A stretch of DNA of 64,000 nt from Minisyncoccota bacterium. GTDB taxonomy: Bacteria; Patescibacteriota; Minisyncoccia; Phycocordibacterales; UBA918. The stretch is taken from the NCBI GenBank assembly GCA_022841645.1, contig JALHRC010000004.1, positions 4,078-68,077 of the forward strand, written 5' to 3'. The position numbers and the translations under genes were made by a program. The notes beneath the pieces were generated by a model. It ran no database searches. It was not told where the DNA came from and saw only the letters and a list, made by a program, of their open reading frames with translations. Position 1 is the stretch's first letter, and each line of letters starts with the position of its first letter. Of the stretch, positions 1 through 62,308 are shown piece after piece.

Positions 1-2
1 GG

Positions 3-98
3 GTGAGAAATGGGGTGGGACCCATTTCGCAAGACTCATTGAGAGTCTTTATGAGCTGGCGATATAAAGAATCCAATGAGTGGACAGAATCTGTAAGA
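3..98. repeat. Copy 1 of a ~95-nt structured repeat (cut by the window start): GTGAGAA + 7-bp hairpin + CGCAAGACTCATTGAGA ... TCCAATGAGTGGACAG ... CTGTAAGA
   Basis: Near-identical to 61513-61606. Internal 8-nt inverted repeat ACTCATTG/CAATGAGT. The 5' hairpin (AAATGGG/CCCATTT) occupies the same position as the GAAGTGAC/GTCACTTC hairpin in copy 2. Confidence 0.5.
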
Positions 99-260
99 TT
101 CGCGAGCACTTAGCGGATTTAAGCGAAGCGTAAAATCTGCTTAGTGACTCGTGTGGACAAGGCGTGCCTTAATACTAGCCGCGTCCAACGTTCTTATAAG
201 CGTAGCGAGTTAGCACCACAAGAGTATTTCCATTTTCATAGTCGTTTCACTCCTTGAAAA

Positions 261-6944: not shown

Positions 6945-7056
6945 TGGTAACGGGTACACTACTGCTTTGGAGATAGAAACTTCGTATGGTCAAGGCGACA
7001 GGCAGCACGGCTGTGCTATAGTCGGCTCGTACCGATGTTCTTCTCACTTCCAGAAT

Positions 7057-7179
7057 ATAACTCTCTAAGCAAAACTTCGGAGAGAAGGTGAATGCCGCGC
7101 TAAGAAAATTGGTCGCACTCTCACTCGAGGTGAGCGCCACCAGTCCCTCGCAACGCACTCGCGTTGCTTAGAGAGTTAT
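7057..7179. repeat. Perfect 16-bp inverted repeat (ATAACTCTCTAAGCAA / TTGCTTAGAGAGTTAT) enclosing ~91 nt with internal hairpins
   Basis: Arms at 7057-7072 and 7164-7179. Interior has CTCAC-TCGAG-GTGAG and other stems. Lies downstream of pilB in a 580-bp ORF-poor interval. Confidence 0.6.
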
Positions 7180-7525
7180 CGTCTGGAAGAAATATAAAGC
7201 TTTCGTGTCGTTCTCCTGGTTACAGAAGAGGAGCACGCGAGCGCGCTAAAAAGAGCAATAAAAAGTCGTGTCGAGTCCGACACGTGAGAACAGCTATTTA
7301 CCTATCTATCTTAGCATACTCTTAATAAATTGTCAATGCCTCGGCTTTTTACCCTCCCTTCACAACACCCTACGCTATTCCTTCAGCCCCCCCACCCCAA
7401 CATTACGCCCTCCAGGAACAGCGCAGTGTGTCGTTTTGGGATAACATCAGCTCAACTTTGCTGCTTACTCACAGCATGAGACAGCGCCCCGGCGTAGGCC
7501 GGTTTTTGTTATACTAAGGCCACTT

Positions 7526-11256: not shown

Positions 11257-13554
11257 ATGGGCTATACGGTAAGAGCTATGACCCGAGTAAAAAAGTGGGT
11301 GCGGAGCCTTAAACGGCTGCCAATGAAAGAGATTCTTATCGATATCAGTATCGTGCTATTTGCCGTGGGAGTACTCGGTACAGCCGGCCTACTGATCTGG
11401 ATTTCAACTCTCGACATTCCCGACCTTTCCGCTTTCGAAGAGCGGCGAGTACTCCAGTCCACCAAGCTCTACGACCGGACCGGCGAAATTCTCCTCTACG
11501 ACCTTGGTAAGGACGTACGACGCACGGTGGTTCCTATTGATGCCATTTCCCACCACCTTAAAAACGCGACCATCGCTATCGAAGACGACCAGTTTTACAA
11601 CCACTTTGGCGTACAACCAAAAGCCATTCTCCGCGCCGGCTGGGCCAACTTTACCGACGGTGACCTCCTCGGTGGCCAGGGTGGTTCAACTATCACGCAG
11701 CAGGTAATAAAGAACTCCGTTCTCCAGCGCGACAAAACGCTCACGCGAAAAATTAAAGAAGCCATTCTCGCCATCAAGCTTGAGCGGGTGCTTTCTAAAG
11801 ACGAAATTCTTTCAATTTACCTCAACGAATCACCCTATGGCGGCACCATTTACGGTGTAGAGGAGGCAGCGCAGGCATTTTTTGGCAAGAAAGCCACCGA
11901 CCTAACTCTTAACGAGGCAGCATACCTCGCTGCCCTTCCCCAGGCCCCCACCTATCTCTCCCCTTATGGAAACAATCGCGAGCGACTCGATGCGCGGCAA
12001 CGACTCGTCCTTGAGCGGATGAAGATAAACGATTTTATTACCGAAGAGGAATATAACGCCGCCATTTCCACCACCACAGAATTCTTGCCCCAAGCAGTGT
12101 CTGGTATTCGTGCACCCCACTTTGTCATGTACGTACGTGAGCAGCTCGTCGAAAAATTTGGCGAGGAGGCACTCTCTGAGCGCGGACTACGTGTCATCAC
12201 GACACTCGACGCTGAGCTGCAAGAGGAAGCTGAGCGAATTGTGGCTGAGCATGGTGCGACCAACGTCGAGCGCTTCAAGGCTGATAACGCTGGCATGGTA
12301 GCCACCGACCCACAAACCGGTGACCTCCTCGTTATGGTGGGATCGCGTGACTATTTTAGTGAGGAGATCGACGGTAACTTCAATATTACAACCGCCGATC
12401 GACAACCAGGCTCTGCCATCAAGCCTTTTATCTACGCGGCTGCATTTAGTAAAGGCTACTTACCAGACACCACTGTTTTTGATCTGCGCACACAGTTTTC
12501 TCCTAGCTGTCCACCCGATAGTCAGAGTTCAGAATCTCCCTGTTATTCACCCAACAACTACAACAATAAATTCCTCGGCCCTATTAATTTGCGCAATGCC
12601 CTCGCTCAGTCACTCAATATCCCAGCGGTAAAGGTATTGTATCTGGCTGGACTACGTGATTCACTGAAGCTCGCAGCTGACATGGGTCTCACCACCCTCA
12701 ACGACCCCGATCGTTACGGACTAACGCTTGTTCTCGGTGGTGGCGAAGTTAAGTTGGTCGACATGACCTATGCCTACGGTGTCTTTGCAAACGAAGGGGT
12801 GCGTGTAAAACCGCGTACTATTTTACGCATCGAAGACAGCCGTGGTCTGATTGTCGAAGAAGCACCCATTGAAGAGACGCGAGTACTTGATCGCAACGTT
12901 ACCCTCATGATTAGTGACGTTCTTTCCGACAACGTCGCTCGTACACCACTATGGGGAGCCAACTCACTGGTTAACTTTCCCAATCGTTCGGTAGCCTCTA
13001 AAACCGGTAGCACTAACAATCTCCGCGACGCTTGGCTTATGGGGTATGCGCCCAATCTCGCCGTTGGTACCTGGGTAGGTAACAACGATAACTCACCGAT
13101 GGGTGGTGGTCTTTCGGGTCTCATCGTCACCCCGATGTGGCGTGACTTTATGGATTTTGCCTTGGAGCGACGCGATGAGCAAAGCTTTGCTCAACCCGAA
13201 GTTAATTTGAGTAACGTAAAACCCGTGCTGCGTGGCGACTACATCGACCTCACCCAATTGCAGGTAGCTGCCTCGAGCTCCAATGCCACCGCGGTGTCTC
13301 TCATCTACGACAACATCCACACCATTCTCCACTACGTTAATAAAAACGACCCACAAGGACCCTACCCAACGAATCCAGGAAACGACCCACAATATGAGAA
13401 TTGGGAATGGGCAGTGACACGCTGGAAGGAAGAAGCGCTTGGTCCGATAGTCGCAGCTGCCGCCGCGGCAGCTGCGGCCGAGGCCGATCTTGAGGAAGAA
13501 GAGGAGGAGGCAGAGGACGAAGAGGACACTCCACGTCGGCGCCCACGACGATAG
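11257..13554 (+). CDS. Class A penicillin-binding protein (transglycosylase + transpeptidase) with an acidic/poly-Ala C-terminal tail
   Basis: GT51 motifs (EDDQFYNHFG, GGSTITQQ), transpeptidase SxxK/KTG (SKTGST), N-terminal TM anchor. The true start may be the Met near 11323. Confidence 0.85.
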   Translation: MGYTVRAMTRVKKWVRSLKRLPMKEILIDISIVLFAVGVLGTAGLLIWISTLDIPDLSAFEERRVLQSTKLYDRTGEILLYDLGKDVRRTVVPIDAISHHLKNATIAIEDDQFYNHFGVQPKAILRAGWANFTDGDLLGGQGGSTITQQVIKNSVLQRDKTLTRKIKEAILAIKLERVLSKDEILSIYLNESPYGGTIYGVEEAAQAFFGKKATDLTLNEAAYLAALPQAPTYLSPYGNNRERLDARQRLVLERMKINDFITEEEYNAAISTTTEFLPQAVSGIRAPHFVMYVREQLVEKFGEEALSERGLRVITTLDAELQEEAERIVAEHGATNVERFKADNAGMVATDPQTGDLLVMVGSRDYFSEEIDGNFNITTADRQPGSAIKPFIYAAAFSKGYLPDTTVFDLRTQFSPSCPPDSQSSESPCYSPNNYNNKFLGPINLRNALAQSLNIPAVKVLYLAGLRDSLKLAADMGLTTLNDPDRYGLTLVLGGGEVKLVDMTYAYGVFANEGVRVKPRTILRIEDSRGLIVEEAPIEETRVLDRNVTLMISDVLSDNVARTPLWGANSLVNFPNRSVASKTGSTNNLRDAWLMGYAPNLAVGTWVGNNDNSPMGGGLSGLIVTPMWRDFMDFALERRDEQSFAQPEVNLSNVKPVLRGDYIDLTQLQVAASSSNATAVSLIYDNIHTILHYVNKNDPQGPYPTNPGNDPQYENWEWAVTRWKEEALGPIVAAAAAAAAAEADLEEEEEEAEDEEDTPRRRPRR

Positions 13555-13557
13555 CCT

Positions 13558-13854
13558 TTAAAGAAGGGTGGTGGGACTTTCGTTCGTTCCTAGACGATCT
13601 TTAATGGCCGACAGTATCTCTTCTCGGCGGAGTAGTATTTCGCTCCGGAGCGCCGCCGGTGCTTTTATATAAATAGCTCGAGTGGATGGGGTGTACGCGA
13701 AATACTCGACCCGAACCGGAAAGGGTACCAGTTCCTCCACTACCCGGCAGACCTCTTTTTCTACTGATTTCTGTGGTGGTTTAAGGAGTGTCGCATATTT
13801 AGAGAATAGCGAGCTTACCTTCATGAGCTCCCCTCGTCGCTTGGCCATGATCAC
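13558..13854 (-). CDS. DUF721/DciA-like small protein; its start overlaps the dnaN stop by 4 nt
   Basis: 98 aa. The pattern VCRVVEEL..VRVEY.AYTPSTRAIYIKAPAALRSEILLRREEIL resembles the DUF721 family commonly found beside dnaN/recF. Confidence 0.4.
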   Translation of the reverse strand: MIMAKRRGELMKVSSLFSKYATLLKPPQKSVEKEVCRVVEELVPFPVRVEYFAYTPSTRAIYIKAPAALRSEILLRREEILSAIKDRLGTNESPTTLL

Positions 13855-14945
13855 TTATTCATCGGCATTACCAAATATCGCAGTGAGCTATCGCTGCCGC
13901 CGCTCATAACCAGTGGTCGACCAATACCAGCAAATTTCATCGTTAGACTTTCATCGGACATGTGCGGTAATGGCTCTACTACGTATTGCTGATTAAAATT
14001 GAGTCGTAGTTCTTCACCTGTCACTTGGGCTTTTAGAGTATCGGTAGTGTGTCCCACATCATTGTTGGTAGCTGAGACAGTGAGGTGCCCTTCGGTAATC
14101 GTAACGGTTACTTGGAGGAATTTATTGAGAAACACGTTCGTCTTTTTGAGAGCTTTCTGAAGATCATCCTTAAGTACCACCACCGTCGTAACATATTCTT
14201 TCGGAATAATCTGCTCATAATCAGGAAACGACCCCGTAACGAGACGTGACGTGATATAGACTCCAGAACTGAAAGCGAGGCTACACTGGTTTTCGGTAAT
14301 TAGGAGCGTTGGTGAGCCTCCTACGAGCTCACAAACCCGTGCGAGTTCAAGAGCGTTGCGGTGAGGCACTAAAAACGAATGATCAAGTGCAACGCCTTTT
14401 TGGGGAACGGTTTTTTCCATCAAACGAAATGAGTCGGTCGCCACAAACGTGAGTGAATGCTCACGTTTTTGCTGTACAAACACGCTCCCCAGCTCTGGCT
14501 TTATTGATGTGTGTGAAGCCGCGAGCGCTACTGTCTTGATACCAAACGCAAACATCTCAGCATTTACCACTACCCCCGTGCTCGTCACTCGCGCAATCGT
14601 GGGAAATTCGTCGTGGGGAATAGCTTTGATTGAAGTTTCTGTGTGAGCCCCTTCGATAGTCACCACTCCCTCATCTACTCGCAATACCACTTCTCCAGTG
14701 GCCAAAAACTGTACCGTCTGAAGGAGGGTCTGCGCCGGCACCGCTACCACCCCCACTTCCTCAACCTTTCCCTCAAGAATAATTTCGACACTAATCTCGA
14801 GGTTGGTGGCACGAAGAATAATTTGGTCCTTCGTTACTTCTATCAGCACACACTGCAGTACGGGCAGCGTGACGTGTTTGGTACTTATGCGACTAACGAT
14901 CTCGAGTGCGCTTAGCAGTTTCTGGTGGGGAGTAGTTATTTTCAT
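13851..14945 (-). CDS. dnaN: DNA polymerase III beta sliding clamp
   Basis: Three-domain beta-clamp length. Begins MKITTPHQKLLSAL at the internal Met; the ORF track runs to 14990. Adjacent to dnaA. Confidence 0.85.
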   Translation of the reverse strand: MKITTPHQKLLSALEIVSRISTKHVTLPVLQCVLIEVTKDQIILRATNLEISVEIILEGKVEEVGVVAVPAQTLLQTVQFLATGEVVLRVDEGVVTIEGAHTETSIKAIPHDEFPTIARVTSTGVVVNAEMFAFGIKTVALAASHTSIKPELGSVFVQQKREHSLTFVATDSFRLMEKTVPQKGVALDHSFLVPHRNALELARVCELVGGSPTLLITENQCSLAFSSGVYITSRLVTGSFPDYEQIIPKEYVTTVVVLKDDLQKALKKTNVFLNKFLQVTVTITEGHLTVSATNNDVGHTTDTLKAQVTGEELRLNFNQQYVVEPLPHMSDESLTMKFAGIGRPLVMSGGSDSSLRYLVMPMNK

Positions 14946-40570: not shown

Positions 40571-40674
40571 CGTCAAACATTAAATTAATAACTCTCCGAG
40601 CATAACAAACTCGCTGCCGACCGCAAGGCGGTCGGCAGCTTTGGGGACTCCTGAACATGCGAGTGTAAAGAAAC

Positions 40675-40716
40675 GTACACGCGCGGCGGCACCAGAGGTG
40701 CCGCCGCGCGTGTACA
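40675..40716 (-). terminator. 19-bp perfect hairpin downstream of the NYN gene
   Basis: GTACACGCGCGGCGGCACC-AGAG-GGTGCCGCCGCGCGTGTAC, followed on the - strand by GTTTCTTT. Confidence 0.5.
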
Positions 40717-40735
40717 CTACTTTCTCTACCACCCG

Positions 40736-43228: not shown

Positions 43229-43271
43229 AGTAGTTATGACGGATTCGAGCCGACTTTATTACTAGTTTGTC

Positions 43272-43311
43272 CACTAACCCCCGTCCCGTTAGGACGGGGG
43301 TTAGTGGACGC
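43272..43311. terminator. 18-bp perfect hairpin between the PG-binding gene and the PEP-utiliser gene
   Basis: GTCCACTAACCCCCGTCC-CGTTA-GGACGGGGGTTAGTGGAC. Confidence 0.5.
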
Positions 43312-43391
43312 ATAATTAGTAACGGCGGATCGCCCTGCTTTGTTGCGGGGTGAGCCGGGCGGATTTTTACTTGCTGTCGTGGAGGGGTAGT

Positions 43392-52722: not shown

Positions 52723-53634
52723 TTACTGCGCTTCCGAATAAAGTGAAAAGAGCGCCGTCACTGCTGGCCAATTGCGTTCCCATTCAGTACTTTGCCAGCC
52801 CTCGAGCTCGACCGTCACAGCGGGAATACCGATAGATGCAAGCCAGCCTTCAGCATCACCAGTAACAGGATAGGCGTCAAAGCTTTCTACCGCACCATAC
52901 TTCCCTGCTGCAGCGTAGGTGCGCATCAGGGAAAGGGTCTCAGGCAATACGCCATTCTCGCACTCAGAAGCATACACATTATTCGCTTGGCTATGCCAGA
53001 AGACCACTCCTTGTGGACGGGTCGCGAGCACGTAGTCGCGCAACGAGGCCGCCTCAGGTTCGGAGAACGGTGCACTGCCAGCACTCACCGCTGCACCACG
53101 CCAGGTGGAGGTTGATTGCCACTTACAGTCGAAGTTGCGGTTGAGGTCAACCTCGCGCGCGTTGAAGCGGCCCTCCGCCACACGCTCGCTTTGTATGGTG
53201 ACATCGTCGATGGTAAAGCGACCAGAGGAGGCGACTACCGTAGAGAGGCCGTCGGGGTTAAGTACAGGAATGATGTGGATGGTAAGGTCGGGTGGAACGA
53301 GTGTGGGGTCGGCAGCCAGTATGTCCATCACTTGGTAGGCGAGTAATGAACTGTTCCACTCATAGCCGCCATGAATACCACCGACAAACAGAAGTGAGGT
53401 AGAACCGTTCCCAAACGTGTGTGCTTCAATCGCTCGTCCTTCGACTGAGGAACCGATGACGCGCATGGTTTGCCACGGTAACGCTGGCGGTGCTTCGGGT
53501 AGGGTGGGTACAGAGGGAGTCTCTACAACCGGCGCCGGCCGTAGCAGGAGGAAGAGGCCCGCGGCGACGGCGAGACAGGCGATAAAGAAAAGTACCGAGA
53601 AAGCCTTAAGAGAAGACTGAGGGCGAGGCGGCAT
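52723..53634 (-). CDS. Membrane-anchored M14-family zinc carboxypeptidase-like protein, paralog 1
   Basis: N-terminal TM. GGIHGGYEWNS (compare the M14 HxxE zinc motif) and VFWHSQ (compare M14 HSYSQ). Confidence 0.5.
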   Translation of the reverse strand: MPPRPQSSLKAFSVLFFIACLAVAAGLFLLLRPAPVVETPSVPTLPEAPPALPWQTMRVIGSSVEGRAIEAHTFGNGSTSLLFVGGIHGGYEWNSSLLAYQVMDILAADPTLVPPDLTIHIIPVLNPDGLSTVVASSGRFTIDDVTIQSERVAEGRFNAREVDLNRNFDCKWQSTSTWRGAAVSAGSAPFSEPEAASLRDYVLATRPQGVVFWHSQANNVYASECENGVLPETLSLMRTYAAAGKYGAVESFDAYPVTGDAEGWLASIGIPAVTVELEGWQSTEWERNWPAVTALFSLYSEAQ

Positions 53635-53647
53635 GGGGGTCGGCTAG

Positions 53648-54586
53648 CTACTGCGCTGCCACTGCCTTCATAGCAGCTTCAAGGCCGCGGCGATTCTTTT
53701 CCCACTCAGTTGACTGGTGGTCGGTAAGGAGGATGCTGATGGCGGGGATGTCCTGCTTAGCAAACCAGTTCATCATGTCGCCAGTAATTTCATAGTAATT
53801 AAACTCATCATGGGCGGTGTATCCCGAGGCGGTCGCGAAGGTCTGCATCAGGGCCCTCGTCTCGGCAGAAACGCCATCGCCACAGTTGGAAGCGTAGACG
53901 CCGCCGGCGGCACTGTACCAGCCAATGACAGCTGTTGGTGGGTAATCGGCTACATAGTCACGGAGCGCGGCTGCCTCAGGCTCTGAGAAAGGTGCACTAC
54001 CGCCACTTACATTGCGACTCCGCCAGGTGCCCTGTGCTTCCCACTCACAATCGAAGTTGCGGTTGAGGTCGACGGTGTTGGCGTTAAAGCGGCCGGCGAT
54101 ACGAGCGGCTTCGCTCGTGGGGACTGCCGCCGTGGTAAAGCGGCCAGTGGTCTTTACTGTTTCCATAAGTCCGTCAGCGTTAAAGGCTGGGATAACGGTT
54201 ACCATCACTCCTTCCGGTATAACGTCTGGGTTGTCACCTAGGTAGTCGACAATGTCGTGACCAAGGAGCGCGGTGTTCCATGAGTAGCCGCCGTGGATGC
54301 CGCCTACGAGTAGAATTTCTTTGGTACCCGTACCGAAGTGGTAGGCGGTGATCGCTTCCCCACCGGCCGAAGTGCCGATGACCGTACTCTCACCACGGAC
54401 GGCGGGAGTGACGTCAGTCGTCGTGGTAGCTACTGGCTCGGGAGTAACCACTGGTGTCGAAGGTGTGTCAGAAGGGTCTGGTGTATCGGTAGTGAGTTCG
54501 GTCGAACGACTCATAAATAGATAAAGACCACCAATAACTACGATAATCAAAGCTCCGATAAGCAACAGCGGGGTTTTTGTTTGCAT
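53648..54586 (-). CDS. Membrane-anchored M14-family zinc carboxypeptidase-like protein, paralog 2
   Basis: Same motifs (GGIHGGYSWNT; GWYSAAG) and same architecture as the adjacent paralog. Confidence 0.5.
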   Translation of the reverse strand: MQTKTPLLLIGALIIVVIGGLYLFMSRSTELTTDTPDPSDTPSTPVVTPEPVATTTTDVTPAVRGESTVIGTSAGGEAITAYHFGTGTKEILLVGGIHGGYSWNTALLGHDIVDYLGDNPDVIPEGVMVTVIPAFNADGLMETVKTTGRFTTAAVPTSEAARIAGRFNANTVDLNRNFDCEWEAQGTWRSRNVSGGSAPFSEPEAAALRDYVADYPPTAVIGWYSAAGGVYASNCGDGVSAETRALMQTFATASGYTAHDEFNYYEITGDMMNWFAKQDIPAISILLTDHQSTEWEKNRRGLEAAMKAVAAQ

Positions 54587-58174: not shown

Positions 58175-58246
58175 GCACCCGTGGTGAAGTGGATATCATT
58201 ACTGTCTTCGGAACAGTCGTCCCAGGTTCGAGTCCTGGCGGGTGCA
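58175..58246 (+). tRNA. tRNA-Arg (anticodon TCG), no encoded CCA
   Basis: Hand-folded cloverleaf: acceptor GCACCCG/CGGGTGC, anticodon loop CTTCGGA, T-loop TTCGAGT. 72 nt. Confidence 0.75.
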
Positions 58247-58254
58247 CAAACAGC

Positions 58255-58282
58255 CGATGCCGACACGAAAGTGTCGGCATCG
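58255..58282 (+). terminator. Hairpin (12-bp stem, GAAA loop) followed by a T-rich run after tRNA-Arg(TCG)
   Basis: CGATGCCGACAC-GAAA-GTGTCGGCATCG + TTGCTGTTT. Confidence 0.6.
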
Positions 58283-58292
58283 TTGCTGTTTG

Positions 58293-58313
58293 GCACCCGC
58301 CAGGACTCGAACC
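58293..58313 (-). repeat. Perfect inverted copy of the 3'-terminal 21 nt of tRNA-Arg(TCG)
   Basis: GCACCCGCCAGGACTCGAACC is the reverse complement of tRNA positions 58225-58245. Upstream tRNA-like structure is absent. Confidence 0.7.
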
Positions 58314-58504
58314 CCTCCACCGGGACCCAACATGTAGCGAAAGCGTAGTGGTGGTGATGGAGGGGCGGGGTCGCGACAGCGAGCCGAAATGGAGCAAAGT
58401 GAACATTTTGGCCGCTGTGGTGACCGAGTATTTCCATAGCGAAGAAATATGGTTAGTAACTCGTGACCACTGCGTTCATGATTTTTTGCTACAATCCTTG
58501 CGTC

Positions 58505-58576
58505 GCTCCCATAGTTTAATGGATAGAATGCAGGTTTCCGGTACCTGCGATCCAGGTTCGATTCCTGGTGGGAGCA
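58505..58576 (+). tRNA. tRNA-Arg (anticodon CCG), no encoded CCA
   Basis: Acceptor GCTCCCA/TGGGAGC, anticodon loop TTCCGGT, T-loop TTCGATT. 72 nt. Confidence 0.75.
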
Positions 58577-58587
58577 CAAATCGGCCC

Positions 58588-58611
58588 ACTGAAATGCGAA
58601 GGCATTTCGGT
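58588..58611 (+). terminator. Hairpin (GAAATGC-GAAG-GCATTTC) after tRNA-Arg(CCG)
   Basis: Sits in the same position as the hairpin after the first tRNA-Arg. Confidence 0.5.
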
Positions 58612-58625
58612 CGTTGTCGTTTGTA

Positions 58626-58646
58626 GCTCCCACCAGGAATCGAACC
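58626..58646 (-). repeat. Perfect inverted copy of the 3'-terminal 21 nt of tRNA-Arg(CCG)
   Basis: GCTCCCACCAGGAATCGAACC is the reverse complement of tRNA positions 58555-58575. Confidence 0.7.
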
Positions 58647-58765
58647 GAGGCGCGGCGAAGCCCGCAGGCGAAATGAAATGGAGCCGAGGAACGCGCCGAG
58701 TGGGGGTCGAGCGAGTGCGGTAGTTTATGAGCGGAGCGAAGTAAACTACCCACGAGAGTGACCGG

Positions 58766-58783
58766 TTCCTGGTGGGAGCACCA
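58766..58783 (+). repeat. Direct partial copy of the tRNA-Arg(CCG) 3' end (TTCCTGGTGGGAGCA + CCA)
   Basis: 15-nt identity with the tRNA acceptor/T-stem 3' strand, about 190 bp downstream of the tRNA and just upstream of the HAD gene. Confidence 0.6.
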
Positions 58784-58807
58784 GTTTATGATTATTTTAC
58801 GGCGTAA

Positions 58808-60437: not shown

Positions 60438-61118
60438 ATGACTTCACGCCAGCGGTATAAGGAAGCGCAGTACGAAGAGGCAAAAAGCCTTCGTTTGCGA
60501 GGTTTTTCCTACGCTGCTATTGCTAAGATCTGTGCTATCGCGCCCTCTACCGTACACGCCTGGTTCGCAAAGGATACTTTTTCTCAAGCGGTGACCGCCA
60601 GTAACCGGAAGCGCGCCGCCAAGGAAAATAAGGTACGTATTGGCGTTATCAACCAGGCAAGAAAGAAAGAACGGGCGGTGCAGTACGCGGCAGTAGTAAA
60701 GCTGGCAGAAACTGAATACAAGCACTACCGGACTTCCCCGTTATTTATGGCGGGGCTCATGGTGTACGTGAGCGAGGGTGACACTCAGCATCCACGACTG
60801 ATTCGTATGGCAAACAGTCGTCCAGAGCTCCACCGGGTGTTCATTCGCTTCTTGCATGAGTTTATGGGGGTGGAACGCAACCAGGTGCGGTTTTGGCTGC
60901 TCCTCTACCCCGACCTTGATGAAACCACCTGTATGAAGCACTGGATTAAAAAAATTGGCGTTTCTGCCGGACAATTTTATAAAAACCAGTATATCCAGGG
61001 TCGTAGCCAGAAACGTACGTTGCATTTTGGGGTTGGCAATACTATAATCGGCAGTACTCTTTTGAAAAAGAAGCTGGTTCGCTGGATTGAATTGGCCCTC
61101 AAAGAGCTACAAAAATGA
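60438..61118 (+). CDS. HTH + possible single-motif LAGLIDADG-like domain protein
   Basis: N-terminal HTH (GFSYAAIAKICAIAPSTVHAWF). Later FMAGLMVYVSEGD...ELHRVFIRFLHEFMGVERNQV resembles the LAGLIDADG dodecapeptide plus the following ..LL..I...FG.G.I block. Ends 5 nt before tRNA-Gly. Confidence 0.3.
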   Translation: MTSRQRYKEAQYEEAKSLRLRGFSYAAIAKICAIAPSTVHAWFAKDTFSQAVTASNRKRAAKENKVRIGVINQARKKERAVQYAAVVKLAETEYKHYRTSPLFMAGLMVYVSEGDTQHPRLIRMANSRPELHRVFIRFLHEFMGVERNQVRFWLLLYPDLDETTCMKHWIKKIGVSAGQFYKNQYIQGRSQKRTLHFGVGNTIIGSTLLKKKLVRWIELALKELQK

Positions 61119-61123
61119 CGTTG

Positions 61124-61194
61124 CGGCCATGGTTAAGTGGTATAACATATCGTTGCCAACGATAGGTCGGGAGTTCGATTCTCCCTGGCCGCAC
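61124..61194 (+). tRNA. tRNA-Gly (anticodon GCC)
   Basis: Acceptor GCGGCCA/TGGCCGC, anticodon loop TTGCCAA, T-loop TTCGATT. 71 nt. Confidence 0.75.
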
Positions 61195-61241
61195 AAACGC
61201 GTTTAAATCCCTGCCCTGCGGCAGGGATTTAGCGTTTGTGA
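61195..61241 (+). terminator. Long imperfect hairpin immediately after tRNA-Gly
   Basis: CAAACGC-GTTTAAATCCCTGCC-CTGC-GGCAGGGATTTAG-CGTTTGTG. Confidence 0.5.
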
Positions 61242-61391
61242 ACCGCAGCGATGTTTCTGGCTTAACAAAAAGCCAGAAACTGCGAGGTGGGGCCGAGAAC
61301 ACTTAGTAGATTTGGAGTAAAACGAACAAATATACTTAGTGATTCGTGGCCAAGTACAAAAATGAGCGCCTCCGGGCGCCATTTTTGTTCG

Positions 61392-61437
61392 TGCGGCCAG
61401 AGCACTGCCTTTGCAGGCAGTGCGTGGAGAATCGAAC
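61392..61437 (-). repeat. Inverted copy of the tRNA-Gly 3'-terminal 21 nt, split by a 25-nt hairpin insertion (TGCGGCCAG / hairpin / GGAGAATCGAAC)
   Basis: Reverse complements match tRNA-Gly 61186-61194 and 61174-61185. Between them lies GCACTGCC-TTTGCA-GGCAGTGC. Confidence 0.55.
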
Positions 61438-61512
61438 GGCGGAGCGTTGCTAAACGCGCCTTTCCTAGCGCGTTTAGCCGCGAGCCGCGGCCGGCGTTCT
61501 TATGAGCGAAGT

Positions 61513-61606
61513 GTGAGAAGTGACTAAATGTCACTTCGCAAGACTCATTGAGAACTTTTGTGAGTTTACGAACAAAAGATCCAATGAGTGGACAGTTTCT
61601 GTAAGA
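61513..61606. repeat. Copy 2 of the ~95-nt structured repeat (see feature 3-98)
   Basis: GTGAGAA + GAAGTGAC-TAAAT-GTCACTTC + GCAAGACTCATTGAGA ... TCCAATGAGTGGACAG-TTT-CTGTAAGA. Confidence 0.5.
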
Positions 61607-61623
61607 AATTAGAAAAAGCGGGC

Positions 61624-61638
61624 CGATTCTCCCTGGCC
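61624..61638 (+). repeat. Direct partial copy of the tRNA-Gly 3' end (CGATTCTCCCTGGCC)
   Basis: 15-nt identity with tRNA-Gly 61178-61192, about 430 bp downstream of the tRNA. Confidence 0.55.
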
Positions 61639-61894
61639 ATATACAGAACAAGCACCCCTCCGGGCGCTTGTTCTGTGCCTAAGGGTAACTAGGGTAAGTT
61701 TGTCTGAGGAGGCCCTGAGCATGTTAAAATGGTAAAGACAGCTGTGGATAACTAAGTGAATAGGTGGATAAAGGACAACTGTCTTTTAAAACTATGGCTC
61801 AACATATAGAATCTTGCCCAGAGCTTTCGGTAAGTGCCGAGTCCAACGTGTTTGATTTTACTGTGCTTAGAAACTGCCACGTGGAACATTTCAC

Positions 61895-62308
61895 ATGAAA
61901 CAAGCCGATAAGCTGGGAAAGCGTAATCAAATTGGTGCCTGGGGAGAGGAGATTGCGGCCGGTGCCATTATTCGAAGAGGAATGACCATTTTGGAAACCA
62001 ACTACCTTAAAAAGTGGGGTGAAATCGATATTGTTGCACGTGAAAAGGATATTTTGCACTTTGTCGAGGTAAAAACAGTTTCATATGAAACAAAACCTCG
62101 ATTACAGTGGGCAATTTCACATGAAACCTGGCGTCCCGAGGATAATGTCCACCGGGCCAAGCTCCTCCGTCTCTCAAGGACAATCGCCACCTGGATTGCT
62201 GAGCATCGTTACACGGGAAACTGGCAGATTGATGTGGCGGTTGTGCGGCTAGTTGAAATTGAAAAATACGCAACGGTTAATTTTATTTGGAATGTGATTA
62301 TGGACTAA
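61895..62308 (+). CDS. yraN: YraN-family (UPF0102) endonuclease-like protein
   Basis: GAWGEEIAAGAIIRRGMTILETNYLKKWGEIDIVAREKDILHFVEVKT matches the YraN core. Confidence 0.6.
   Translation: MKQADKLGKRNQIGAWGEEIAAGAIIRRGMTILETNYLKKWGEIDIVAREKDILHFVEVKTVSYETKPRLQWAISHETWRPEDNVHRAKLLRLSRTIATWIAEHRYTGNWQIDVAVVRLVEIEKYATVNFIWNVIMD

Follow-up and report, generated by a model that had tools for sequence, protein, structure and literature searches.

A covarying 100-nt module and tRNA-derived trailer units as candidate ORF-less insertion elements of Patescibacteria

Patescibacteria have among the smallest and most streamlined of bacterial genomes. Small (~100–150 nt), ORF-less, structured repeats present in multiple copies are known in bacteria as RPEs, ERIC/IRU and REP/BIME elements. 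RPEs are found in reduced genomes, where they are tolerated inside functional genes, and BIMEs are mosaics of hairpin modules located in intergenic DNA, often behind genes. Insertions are also known within rRNA, both as 23S IVS and as a 108-nt insertion in the 5S rRNA of Halococcus. Small self-cleaving ribozymes (hammerhead, twister, hatchet, pistol and HDV-like) occur in many copies and in both orientations, often with selfish DNA. The T-loop is the classic crossover position of the tyrosine recombinases that integrate into tRNA genes. Within Patescibacteria, group I introns have been described in tRNA genes, where they are located at anticodon-loop position 35/36 and interrupt the gene (PMC13011429).

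The element described here, named M1, is a folded element of about 100 nt (95–110 nt). It is similar to RPEs, and more loosely to ERIC/IRU and REP/BIME, in being small, ORF-less, multi-copy and structured. However, M1 is not a simple palindrome; it holds a three-helix junction with invariant unpaired nucleotides and is found in association with stable-RNA genes (tRNA and 5S) and with arms, both inverted and direct, that are specific to the tRNA. REP/BIME elements are imperfect palindromes of 20–40 nt with a RAYT transposase, whereas M1 has three helices and no RAYT-type partner was found near its loci. The larger units in which some M1 copies lie share with tRNA-gene integrative elements a direct repeat from the T-loop to the 3' end, a tRNA restored intact and accretion in tandem. 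Unlike those elements they contain neither integrase nor cargo genes nor a conserved ORF, measure only 0.15–0.45 kb, carry an extra inverted copy of the tRNA end, and can have one core with different tRNA arms in a single genome. Roughly a third of tRNA genes in the examined loci bear stacks of such conserved, highly structured non-coding inserts.

The stretch of DNA analysed (the window) comprises 64,000 nt of a Minisyncoccota bacterium (assembly GCA_022841645.1, contig JALHRC010000004.1, positions 4,078 to 68,077). Its features are collected in Table 1.

Table 1. Features of the window that relate to M1 and the trailer units
Feature	Position	Strand	Details
M1 copy 1, cut by the window start	1–106	+	covariance model 97.7 bits, 5' end missing
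Unit without M1 behind tRNA-Arg(TCG) (gene at 58175)	58225–58313	+	tRNA 3' half, hairpin, inverted copy
Unit without M1 behind tRNA-Arg(CCG) (gene at 58505)	58555–58781	+	
tRNA-Gly(GCC), intact	61123–61194	+	ARAGORN; Rfam tRNA model 69 bits
Post-tRNA hairpin	61192–61240	+	61192–61200/61232–61240 around 61204–61215/61220–61231
Unit A core, without M1	61241–61351	+	AACCGCAGCGATG, hairpin 61253–61280, CTGCGAGGTGGGG, M2
Hairpin GTTTCTGGCTT/AAGCCAGAAAC	61253–61263/61270–61280		within unit A core
Module M2 of unit A	61295–61351	+	GAGAACACTTAG...CTTAGTGATTCGTGGCC; near-identical in L085 and L015
Terminator-like hairpin after unit A	61351–61393	+	GCGCC tccg GGCGC core, A/T runs at flanks
Start of unit B: inverted tRNA-Gly 3'-end copy, two halves	61387–61437	+	
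Unit B core upstream of M1	61439–61512	+	GCGGAGCGTTG, hairpin within 61439–61488, GTTCTTATGAGCGAAGTG
Hairpin GCTAAACGCGC/GCGCGTTTAGC	within 61439–61488		unit B core
M1 copy 2, the element originally flagged	61509–61614	+	inside unit B; covariance model 108.4 bits, E 1e-26
3' end of unit B core (TAGAAAAAGCGGGCC), conserved, then direct tRNA copy	61610–61638	+	
Direct tRNA-Gly copy CGATTCTCCCTGGCC	61624–61638		exact 15 nt, equal to 61176–61190, tRNA positions 56–70
Hairpin after unit B	61643–61676	+	CCTCCGGGCGC in common with hairpin 61351–61393
yraN	61895–62308		downstream of tRNA-Gly(GCC) in the window

The original prediction treated 61195–61700 as a single mosaic of hairpins and tRNA-Gly fragments. 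All of the hairpins and tRNA-Gly copies that it listed are present in the sequence, arranged instead as two tandem trailer units (A and B), each with its own CCTCCGGGCGC hairpin after it. The sequence copied within these units is the stretch from the T-loop to the 3' end of tRNA-Gly(GCC). In the hairpin immediately behind the gene, GCGTTTGTG pairs with the final three tRNA bases plus trailer (CACAAACGC), with TAAATCCCTGCC/GGCAGGGATTTA inside. The hairpin between the two units fits the terminator pattern on both strands, and a homologue of it is located directly 3' of tRNA-Gly in L100/L101. Of the two halves of the inverted copy that begins unit B, 61387–61400 is complementary to 61185–61198 and 61426–61437 to 61173–61184; they are separated by a hairpin (61402–61423), and this split at the acceptor/T-stem junction recurs in other loci. 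The unit continues with the core, M1, the AAAAAGCGGGCC junction and the direct copy. The GTTCTTATGAGCGAAGTG motif is also found at 177–205 of the window (matching 61483–61511) and in L089, while the AAAAAGCGGGAC junction, as in unit B, precedes the copy of a different tRNA in L089, L041 and L066. Folding of 61123–61700 gave z = -16, with 0 of 100 shuffles as good, and unit B alone gave z = -10.3 for a closed multi-branch fold in which the inverted copy is paired to the direct copy.

Elsewhere in the window, M1 copy 1 is followed by an M2-type module at ~107–160 and by a tRNA-3'-like fragment, GCGGGACGATTCTGGGCTGGGTCG, near 274–297, the parent tRNA being upstream of the window. The tRNA-Arg(TCG) unit holds a perfect 21-nt inverted copy (58293–58313) with an M2-like module after it (...TTAGTAACTCGTGACC near 58455–58472). 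The tRNA-Arg(CCG) unit likewise holds a perfect 21-nt inverted copy (58626–58646), then a core whose last bases are GAGAGTGACC, with a direct copy after it at 58763–58781. A weak partial match to the M1 model, consisting of the P3-type hairpin only, lies at 58715–58753.

That the window contains a second copy of the structured element held up, the two M1 copies being ~81% identical with stems that differ by compensatory changes. Copy 2 begins with GUGAGAA (61513–61519); P1 (61514–61524/61530–61540) is followed by UUCGCAAG, P2 (61543–61550/61582–61589) encloses P3 (61552–61561/61572–61581), and after GGACAG comes P4 (61595–61599/61605–61609), which has a UGUAA loop and covaries. The element had been placed at 61513–61606 and does lie there, yet P4 pairs three variable bases with three past 61606, so that the true end of M1 falls at about 61609–61614 and the earlier boundary cuts a covarying helix. 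The ACAG/CTGT (ACAG/CUGU) hairpin implied by the original prediction was set aside, P4 being the helix that covaries.

Folded alone, M1 gave z = -4.0 for the copy at 61509–61614 and -3.5 for the other. Paired cells amounted to 92.7% in the model alignment, against 69.1% in column shuffles and 37–45% when partners were slid. Double-change cells numbered 905 versus 241 expected, compensatory change was seen in 31 of 31 M1 pairs, and the covariation score was 0.529, compared with 0.144 in shuffles and at most 0.086 with partners slid. P2 and P4 were independently supported by RNAalifold on a plain MAFFT alignment. Compensatory changes beyond the controls, as in a conserved RNA or single-stranded DNA element, were thus found. 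The three-helix fold is strongly supported, and M1 is strongly constrained to keep this fold together with the unpaired GUGAGAA, UUCGCAAG and GGACAG segments and the CUGUAAG loop. In the model-fitted alignment G.U exceeded A.C by 106 to 44, a difference inflated by model bias and by a single weak pair that contributes 31 of the G.U; with MAFFT the numbers were ~19 to 14. Because this excess is modest, the plus strand as written is only tentatively the folded strand.

Reference genomes, one per species, were scanned with a pattern restricted to the unpaired segments (TTCGCAAG, a gap of 35–60 nt, and GGACAGNNNCTGTAAGA). The scan returned 98 stretches, nearly all labelled Patescibacteria, with several genomes containing multiple stretches; the labels included Kaiserbacteria, Paceibacteria, Parcubacteria, Nomurabacteria, Zambryskiibacteria, Gracilibacteria and MAGs labelled Saccharibacteria. 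A covariance model built from 64 M1 copies was then searched against the window and the 98 loci, giving 140 M1 copies in a continuum from 116 down to ~20 bits. Apart from the weak partial match at 58715–58753, matches within the window were found only at 61509–61614 and 1–106. When the window was searched with Rfam 15, tRNAs alone matched at gathering score, and no match at E <= 10 was obtained over M1 (61100–61900 and 1–400). Two pattern scans of viral contigs gave 0 matches. A full-text literature search yielded no earlier description of M1, the nearest report being that of the tRNA introns (PMC13011429). Clustering of the neighbouring proteins, up to 2.5 kb away in the 98 loci, revealed no recurrent family; what did recur was a spurious ORF that overlies M1. 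Genes for a nuclease or a reverse transcriptase were not linked to M1 among these neighbours, and no integrase was present in or near ~100 loci. M1 is a new, phylum-restricted, structurally constrained, multi-copy and optional module; with very strong covariation and copies in dozens of genera, this 100-nt sequence falls outside all Rfam families.

With respect to tRNA genes, 45 of the 140 M1 copies are located within 600 nt of one, a position occupied by ~11% of bases. Most of these (38 of 45) are 3' of the tRNA, 29 of the 38 being on the tRNA strand, and nine tRNA-linked copies are antisense to the host transcript. M1 copies are over-represented on the 3' side of tRNA and 5S genes, and M1 is also dispersed in intergenic DNA in either orientation. 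Orientation relative to flanking ORFs showed no bias (four classes, 26/25/14/18), nor did orientation relative to local GC skew (73 to 58, p = 0.22). These results lend no support to a leader or riboswitch function or to a role that depends on the replication strand, and random orientation with respect to neighbouring genes argues against simple co-transcribed small RNAs as a general explanation, a cluster of small RNAs having been the other alternative in the original prediction. The original prediction, which saw the element in its tRNA setting, missed that M1 is separable from it: 95 of the 140 copies lie away from tRNAs, and M1 occurs even inside a second 5S copy.

That second 5S copy is found in L025, where an intact 5S gene is followed by another copy carrying two M1 insertions, one sense and one antisense. 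The three pieces of the interrupted copy are 100% identical to the intact gene, and the site reads ccgtg/ttcgg in the intact 5S versus ccgtg/M1/ttcgg in the second copy. In L091 the insertions are at the same two 5S sites. Like the 23S IVS and the Halococcus 5S insertion, these are hairpin insertions of ~100 nt at rRNA-gene loops; unlike rRNA IVS, an intact 5S gene lies just upstream, one insertion is sense and one antisense, and M1 is dispersed throughout the genome.

Filled and empty sites can be compared in the trailer units as well. Unit A of the window reads ...GCGAGGTGGGG-CC-GAGAACACTTAG with no M1, and L015, L085 and M1 copy 1 are filled at exactly that junction; in other genomes M1 is located exactly between GAGGTGGG and GAGAACAC. 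At five loci (L098, L030, L009, L013 and L095) the antisense of the neighbouring tRNA 3' end immediately precedes M1, which in effect interrupts an additional tRNA 3' half within its T-loop. At two others (L075 and L014) a duplication of the tRNA-Asn 5' part flanks M1, with the tRNA 5' part before it, and at the 5S loci 5S sequence precedes it. M1 is found inserted at loop positions of hairpin-forming host sequences, namely the T-loop of tRNA 3'-half copies, the two sites of second 5S copies, and hairpins of the larger units. M1 is an optional, portable module for which both filled and empty sites exist.

The arrangement of unit B is general among tRNA-linked M1 copies elsewhere, in the order tRNA, trailer or terminator hairpin, inverted 3'-end copy, core and direct copy; in many cases a hairpin divides the inverted copy precisely where acceptor and T-stem meet. 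One type of core consists of GAAC-CGCAGCGATG, a hairpin, CGAGGYGGG, M1 or no M1, and then GAGAACACTTAG...CTTAGTGAYTCGTGACC; a second type ends AAAAAGCGGGAC. The direct copy spans the T-loop to the 3' end, each locus using the sequence of its own tRNA. Among the 81 distinct tRNA genes in the analysed loci, 24 are followed by an exact direct copy (11 nt or longer) and 28 by an inverted copy. In related genomes roughly one tRNA gene in three has this architecture. Of the 24 direct copies, 10 start at tRNA position 56 and three at position 57, and 11 of the 28 inverted copies extend to position 53 or 54. The tRNA-derived repeats range from 11 to 29 nt. Since copies of tRNA ends are about equally common at tRNAs without M1 nearby, the unit architecture is independent of M1.

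Tandem stacking of units, with the tRNA tail and terminator duplicated, is evident in L028, L089 and L042. The arrays of L028 and L089 repeat a block of tRNA tail, terminator and inverted tail followed by a core, and in L042 the tail and terminator (~50 nt) are exactly duplicated on both sides of the inserted segment. L085 contains two cores, behind tRNA-Met and tRNA-Asp, that are near-identical over ~194 gap-free nt, with the arms of each matching its own tRNA. An extended hairpin pairing the tRNA 3' end with downstream sequence is present even at loci free of units (L100; L104 tRNA-Pro).

The original prediction had suggested comparative genomics of the tRNA-Gly to yraN interval, with identical content in orthologous loci counting against it. 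An exact-protein lookup of the YraN of the window returned no record, and five orthologous loci were reached by way of YraN homologues with 64–69% identity. All five conserve the order CCA-adding enzyme, tRNA-Arg, a 226-aa HTH protein, tRNA-Gly(GCC), yraN, tRNA-Pro, NUDIX, hydrolase and sigma factor. The interval measures 590–700 nt in each, and its unit content is completely different: a plain terminator without tRNA copies in L099, a terminator hairpin and GTGCGGCC only in L100 and L101, a unit without M1 but with inverted and direct copies in L102, and a unit with a decayed M1 in L104. Relative to L100, unit A is a clean addition of 157 nt between the tRNA end and the hairpin; in L100/L101 the whole of it is absent and the tRNA end runs directly into the next hairpin. 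The content of the interval turns over between lineages, the reverse of the outcome that would have counted against the prediction. Because all of these comparisons are between species (YraN at most 69% identical), deletion instead of insertion could explain the absences.

Several known identities were considered for M1 and the units; each of the models of a classical MITE, an integrase island, a symmetric attP and a group I intron is contradicted by a feature that was tested. M1 lacks terminal inverted repeats (the first 14 nt and the reverse-complemented last 14 agree at 2 and 5 of 14 positions) and a target duplication of fixed length, the clean 5S site having at most 1 nt of ambiguity, which excludes a classical DDE transposon; nor is there a transposase-bearing relative among the neighbours up to 2.5 kb away in the 98 loci. 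By the test for a tRNA island, direct repeats of the attL/attR type are present and an integrase inside the element is not. A symmetric attP of a serine or tyrosine recombinase predicts the order core, inverted copy, direct copy, which differs from the order observed. A group I intron, an idea taken from the report on tRNA introns (PMC13011429), would share the phylum, the tRNA association and the ORF-less, structured nature; here, however, the tRNA is intact, an extra copy carries the junction, at its T-loop position 56, and no Intron_gpI match was obtained at E <= 10. A riboswitch or cis-regulatory leader was dismissed on the lack of bias among the four orientation classes and of a recurrent neighbour family. 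Retro-copying of a tRNA, suggested by the direct copy at 58763–58781 that ends GCACCA, is not general, as other direct copies carry the genomic trailer and not CCA.

The explanation that we prefer, with the chances of its being right or wrong about evenly balanced, is that M1 and the units form a new family of selfish insertion modules of Patescibacteria that lack ORFs and depend on their structure. Such modules would be non-autonomous and would rely for movement or copying on an enzyme that is encoded elsewhere and recognises their folded single strand, be it DNA or RNA. Their sites, in trailers and in redundant copies of stable-RNA genes, would explain why they are tolerated. Both renewed insertion at the site nearest the tRNA and recombination between the repeated tRNA-derived arms may add to their number. 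A tRNA 3' end followed by a hairpin, an inverted copy, cargo and a direct copy would, under this model, be the product expected from integrating a folded single-stranded hairpin attachment site, by analogy with CTX phage or integron attC. The units appear to share with attC and CTX attP a conserved structure with variable helix sequence and the order target, loop, inverted target, cargo, target. Unlike attC, however, they do not fit the R-box geometry on inspection, and M1 also occurs without tRNA arms.

In favour of selfish modules we count the lack of a recurrent neighbour family and of orientation bias, the continuum of scores that includes the decayed copy in L104 (19.8 bits), and the near-identical cores behind two tRNAs of one genome with tRNA-specific flanks. 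The strong covariation and the conservation of modules across genera indicate that the units are maintained and are not decaying debris. The original prediction of a tiny integrated element between direct tRNA repeats is borne out by the exact 15-nt repeat, by the recurrence of the layout at many tRNAs and by stacking. What does not fit is its term 'remnant', given internal modules that are conserved across genera with strong compensatory covariation. Against the selfish reading, L085 has the same core with different tRNA arms, which is not predicted if arms simply travel with the element, and no known mechanism fits all of the junction types. Neither a mobility enzyme nor an excised form nor an insertion that is polymorphic between strains was found, all comparisons being between species. 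That unpaired nucleotides are so highly conserved between distant lineages would be compatible with an RNA that serves the host as well, and the identity of the 5S pieces to the intact gene could mean that the interrupted copy is functional and not tolerated junk. If they are selfish, these modules offer a new route by which ORF-less DNA persists in reduced genomes, through stable-RNA trailers and spare copies, and they point to a mobility enzyme encoded elsewhere. A bolder form of this proposal, which we regard as possible but rather unlikely, places M1 and the trailer units in a class of their own among mobile elements, a new one without ORFs. Its mobility would act through a folded single strand, either by RNA chemistry of the ribozyme or guide type or by hairpin attachment-site integration, with homing to T-loop position 56 of tRNA genes and to 5S rRNA loops in Patescibacteria, the target gene regenerated intact and inverted and direct target copies left behind.

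The main rival, which we consider unlikely overall, is that these RNA elements are useful to the host, with M1 and the units forming structured domains of tRNA and rRNA 3' trailers and of other intergenic transcripts. They might serve as signals for processing, termination or stability or as a protein-binding platform, as REP/BIME or ERIC elements do, and the inverted and direct tRNA copies would then form long stems as substrates of RNase III-type processing. Strong covariation and invariant junction nucleotides across many genera agree with usefulness to the host, as do the 29 of 38 tRNA-downstream copies on the tRNA strand, the terminator-like hairpin after each unit, the closed multi-branch fold of unit B (z = -10.3) and the extended tRNA-3'-end hairpin even at unit-free loci. 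However, orientation is random relative to flanking genes; nine of the tRNA-linked copies, like one 5S-linked insertion of the two, run antisense to the host transcript; orthologous loci differ in content and decayed copies exist; and copy number varies, with 95 of 140 copies not near a stable-RNA gene. A host-useful trailer role is weakened by these observations, and it is compatible with a domesticated parasite. Were it correct, the elements would represent a phylum-specific layer of tRNA and rRNA transcript processing. A resemblance to small ribozymes, in size, multi-helix junction, conserved unpaired nucleotides, many copies per genome and presence in both orientations, raises the quite improbable alternative that M1 is the catalytic or guide-type RNA of a new mobile element. 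As a catalyst it would be a small self-cleaving ribozyme that trims element RNA from host co-transcripts, and the resemblance is set against the lack of an Rfam match to any ribozyme or guide-RNA family and of an identified cleavage site. As a guide, M1 would be the scaffold and the adjacent host-derived segment, often tRNA-3'-end antisense abutting GUGAGAA, would direct homing to stable-RNA genes. The position of M1 directly after such antisense at the five loci named above, after a tRNA 5' part in L075 and L014 and after 5S sequence in 5S is consistent with guiding. However, the host segment next to M1 varies between sense and antisense, type A units, which are the commonest context, have a constant CGAGGTGGG there, and no nuclease or reverse transcriptase gene is linked.

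It is very unlikely that the interval is the decayed attL/attR scar, or a cis-mobilisable remnant, of a conventional integrase-borne island or prophage once inserted in tRNA-Gly. The exact 15-nt direct repeat does begin in the T-loop and units have accreted in tandem, but no integrase lies in or near ~100 loci, the units measure only 0.15–0.45 kb and yet have modules that are conserved between genera with compensatory changes, the inverted copy is left unexplained, viral contigs gave no match, and roughly one tRNA gene in three is affected. If hairpins and repeat had arisen by chance in a spacer of mixed AT/GC composition, the general frequency of short inverted repeats would be all that speaks for it; with 0 of 100–200 shuffles folding as well and 140 covarying homologous copies, this notion is already refuted and we give it practically no credence.

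The interval had also been described as ORF-free. It does contain mechanical ORFs, at 61262–61651 on the minus strand (129 aa) and at 61287–61505 on the plus strand (72 aa), both of which overlie conserved structured modules. In genome annotation M1 and the units yield spurious ORF calls and mimic attachment sites, and they deserve modelling in these genomes. Spurious ORFs overlap M1 in other genomes too.

M1, the folded non-coding element of about 100 nt with helices P1-P4, is found inside extra copies of the 5S rRNA gene. In stretches of two other genomes (L025 and L091), an extra 5S copy lies just 3' of the intact 5S gene and is interrupted twice by M1, once in sense and once in antisense orientation. 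In both genomes the 5S pieces of this split copy keep 98-100% identity with the intact gene; the copy may be functional, gene-converted or recent.

Coordinates of the features (positions in the window unless a locus is named)
Feature	Position	Strand	Description
Second 5S rRNA gene copy	L025 3560-4012		two M1 insertions
Second 5S rRNA gene copy	L091 360-883		two M1 insertions
tRNA-Arg inverted 3'-end copy	58293-58313		perfect, 21 nt
tRNA-Arg inverted 3'-end copy	58626-58646		perfect, 21 nt
Mechanical ORF	61262-61651	minus	129 aa, across the hairpin-rich mosaic and M1
Direct repeat	53030-53172; 53952-54094		143 nt, 73% identity, 922 nt apart
Inverted repeat	43246-43332		41-nt arms, 78% complementarity
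Inverted repeat	40667-40723		27-nt arms, 89% complementarity
Inverted repeat	7047-7189		26-nt arms, 92% complementarity, 91-nt spacer

Variation is also seen within M1 itself. In a variant found in L039, L076 and L043 (upstream of M1), a P4-like hairpin, GGUCAUGUAAUGACC, takes the place of the GUGAGAA-P1 part and has the same UGUAA loop as P4. Two different genomes among these loci share an identical 45-nt flank upstream but differ over the remainder of M1, which suggests module shuffling. The P1-type GAGAA-stem-UUCGC hairpin also occurs by itself within other units (inserts behind a tRNA gene with copies of its 3' end), for example in L089 and L075. In L043, downstream of the tRNA-Thr gene (304-379), a partial second tRNA-Thr copy at about 380-480 runs from the D-arm to the 3' end, with a P1-type hairpin, GUAAAAUUGGGAUGGGACCCAUUUUUAC, in place of part of the anticodon stem.

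Within the window (58175-58800), each of the two tRNA-Arg genes is followed by a hairpin and then by a perfect inverted copy of its own 3' end, after which come units lacking M1. The direct tRNA-Arg copy at 58763-58781 ends in GCACCA, and CCA is not encoded in the tRNA-Arg gene itself; this ending is probably due to chance, because other direct copies have the genomic trailer.

Open reading frames like the one crossing the mosaic overlie M1 in 13 other loci and cluster into a false 'protein family', making them a likely origin of spurious gene calls in genomes with M1. Directly 5' of tRNA-Gly, the ORF at 60438-61118 encodes a 226-aa protein with weak, N-terminal HTH/Terminase_5 matches and nothing else. 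Its synteny is kept in relatives, and in the orthologous locus L101 an rve-family integrase gene is found in its place.

Upstream of yraN, TTATCCACA (61743-61751, minus strand) is the sole perfect DnaA-box match within the window, and it is adjoined by a one-mismatch box at 61763-61771. The GTGGATAA...GGTGGATAAAGGACA block of this region is kept in the orthologous loci L099, L100, L102 and L104. Cumulative GC skew reaches its minimum at about 12000-14000, which may mark a switch of replication direction, and then rises steadily up to the window end.
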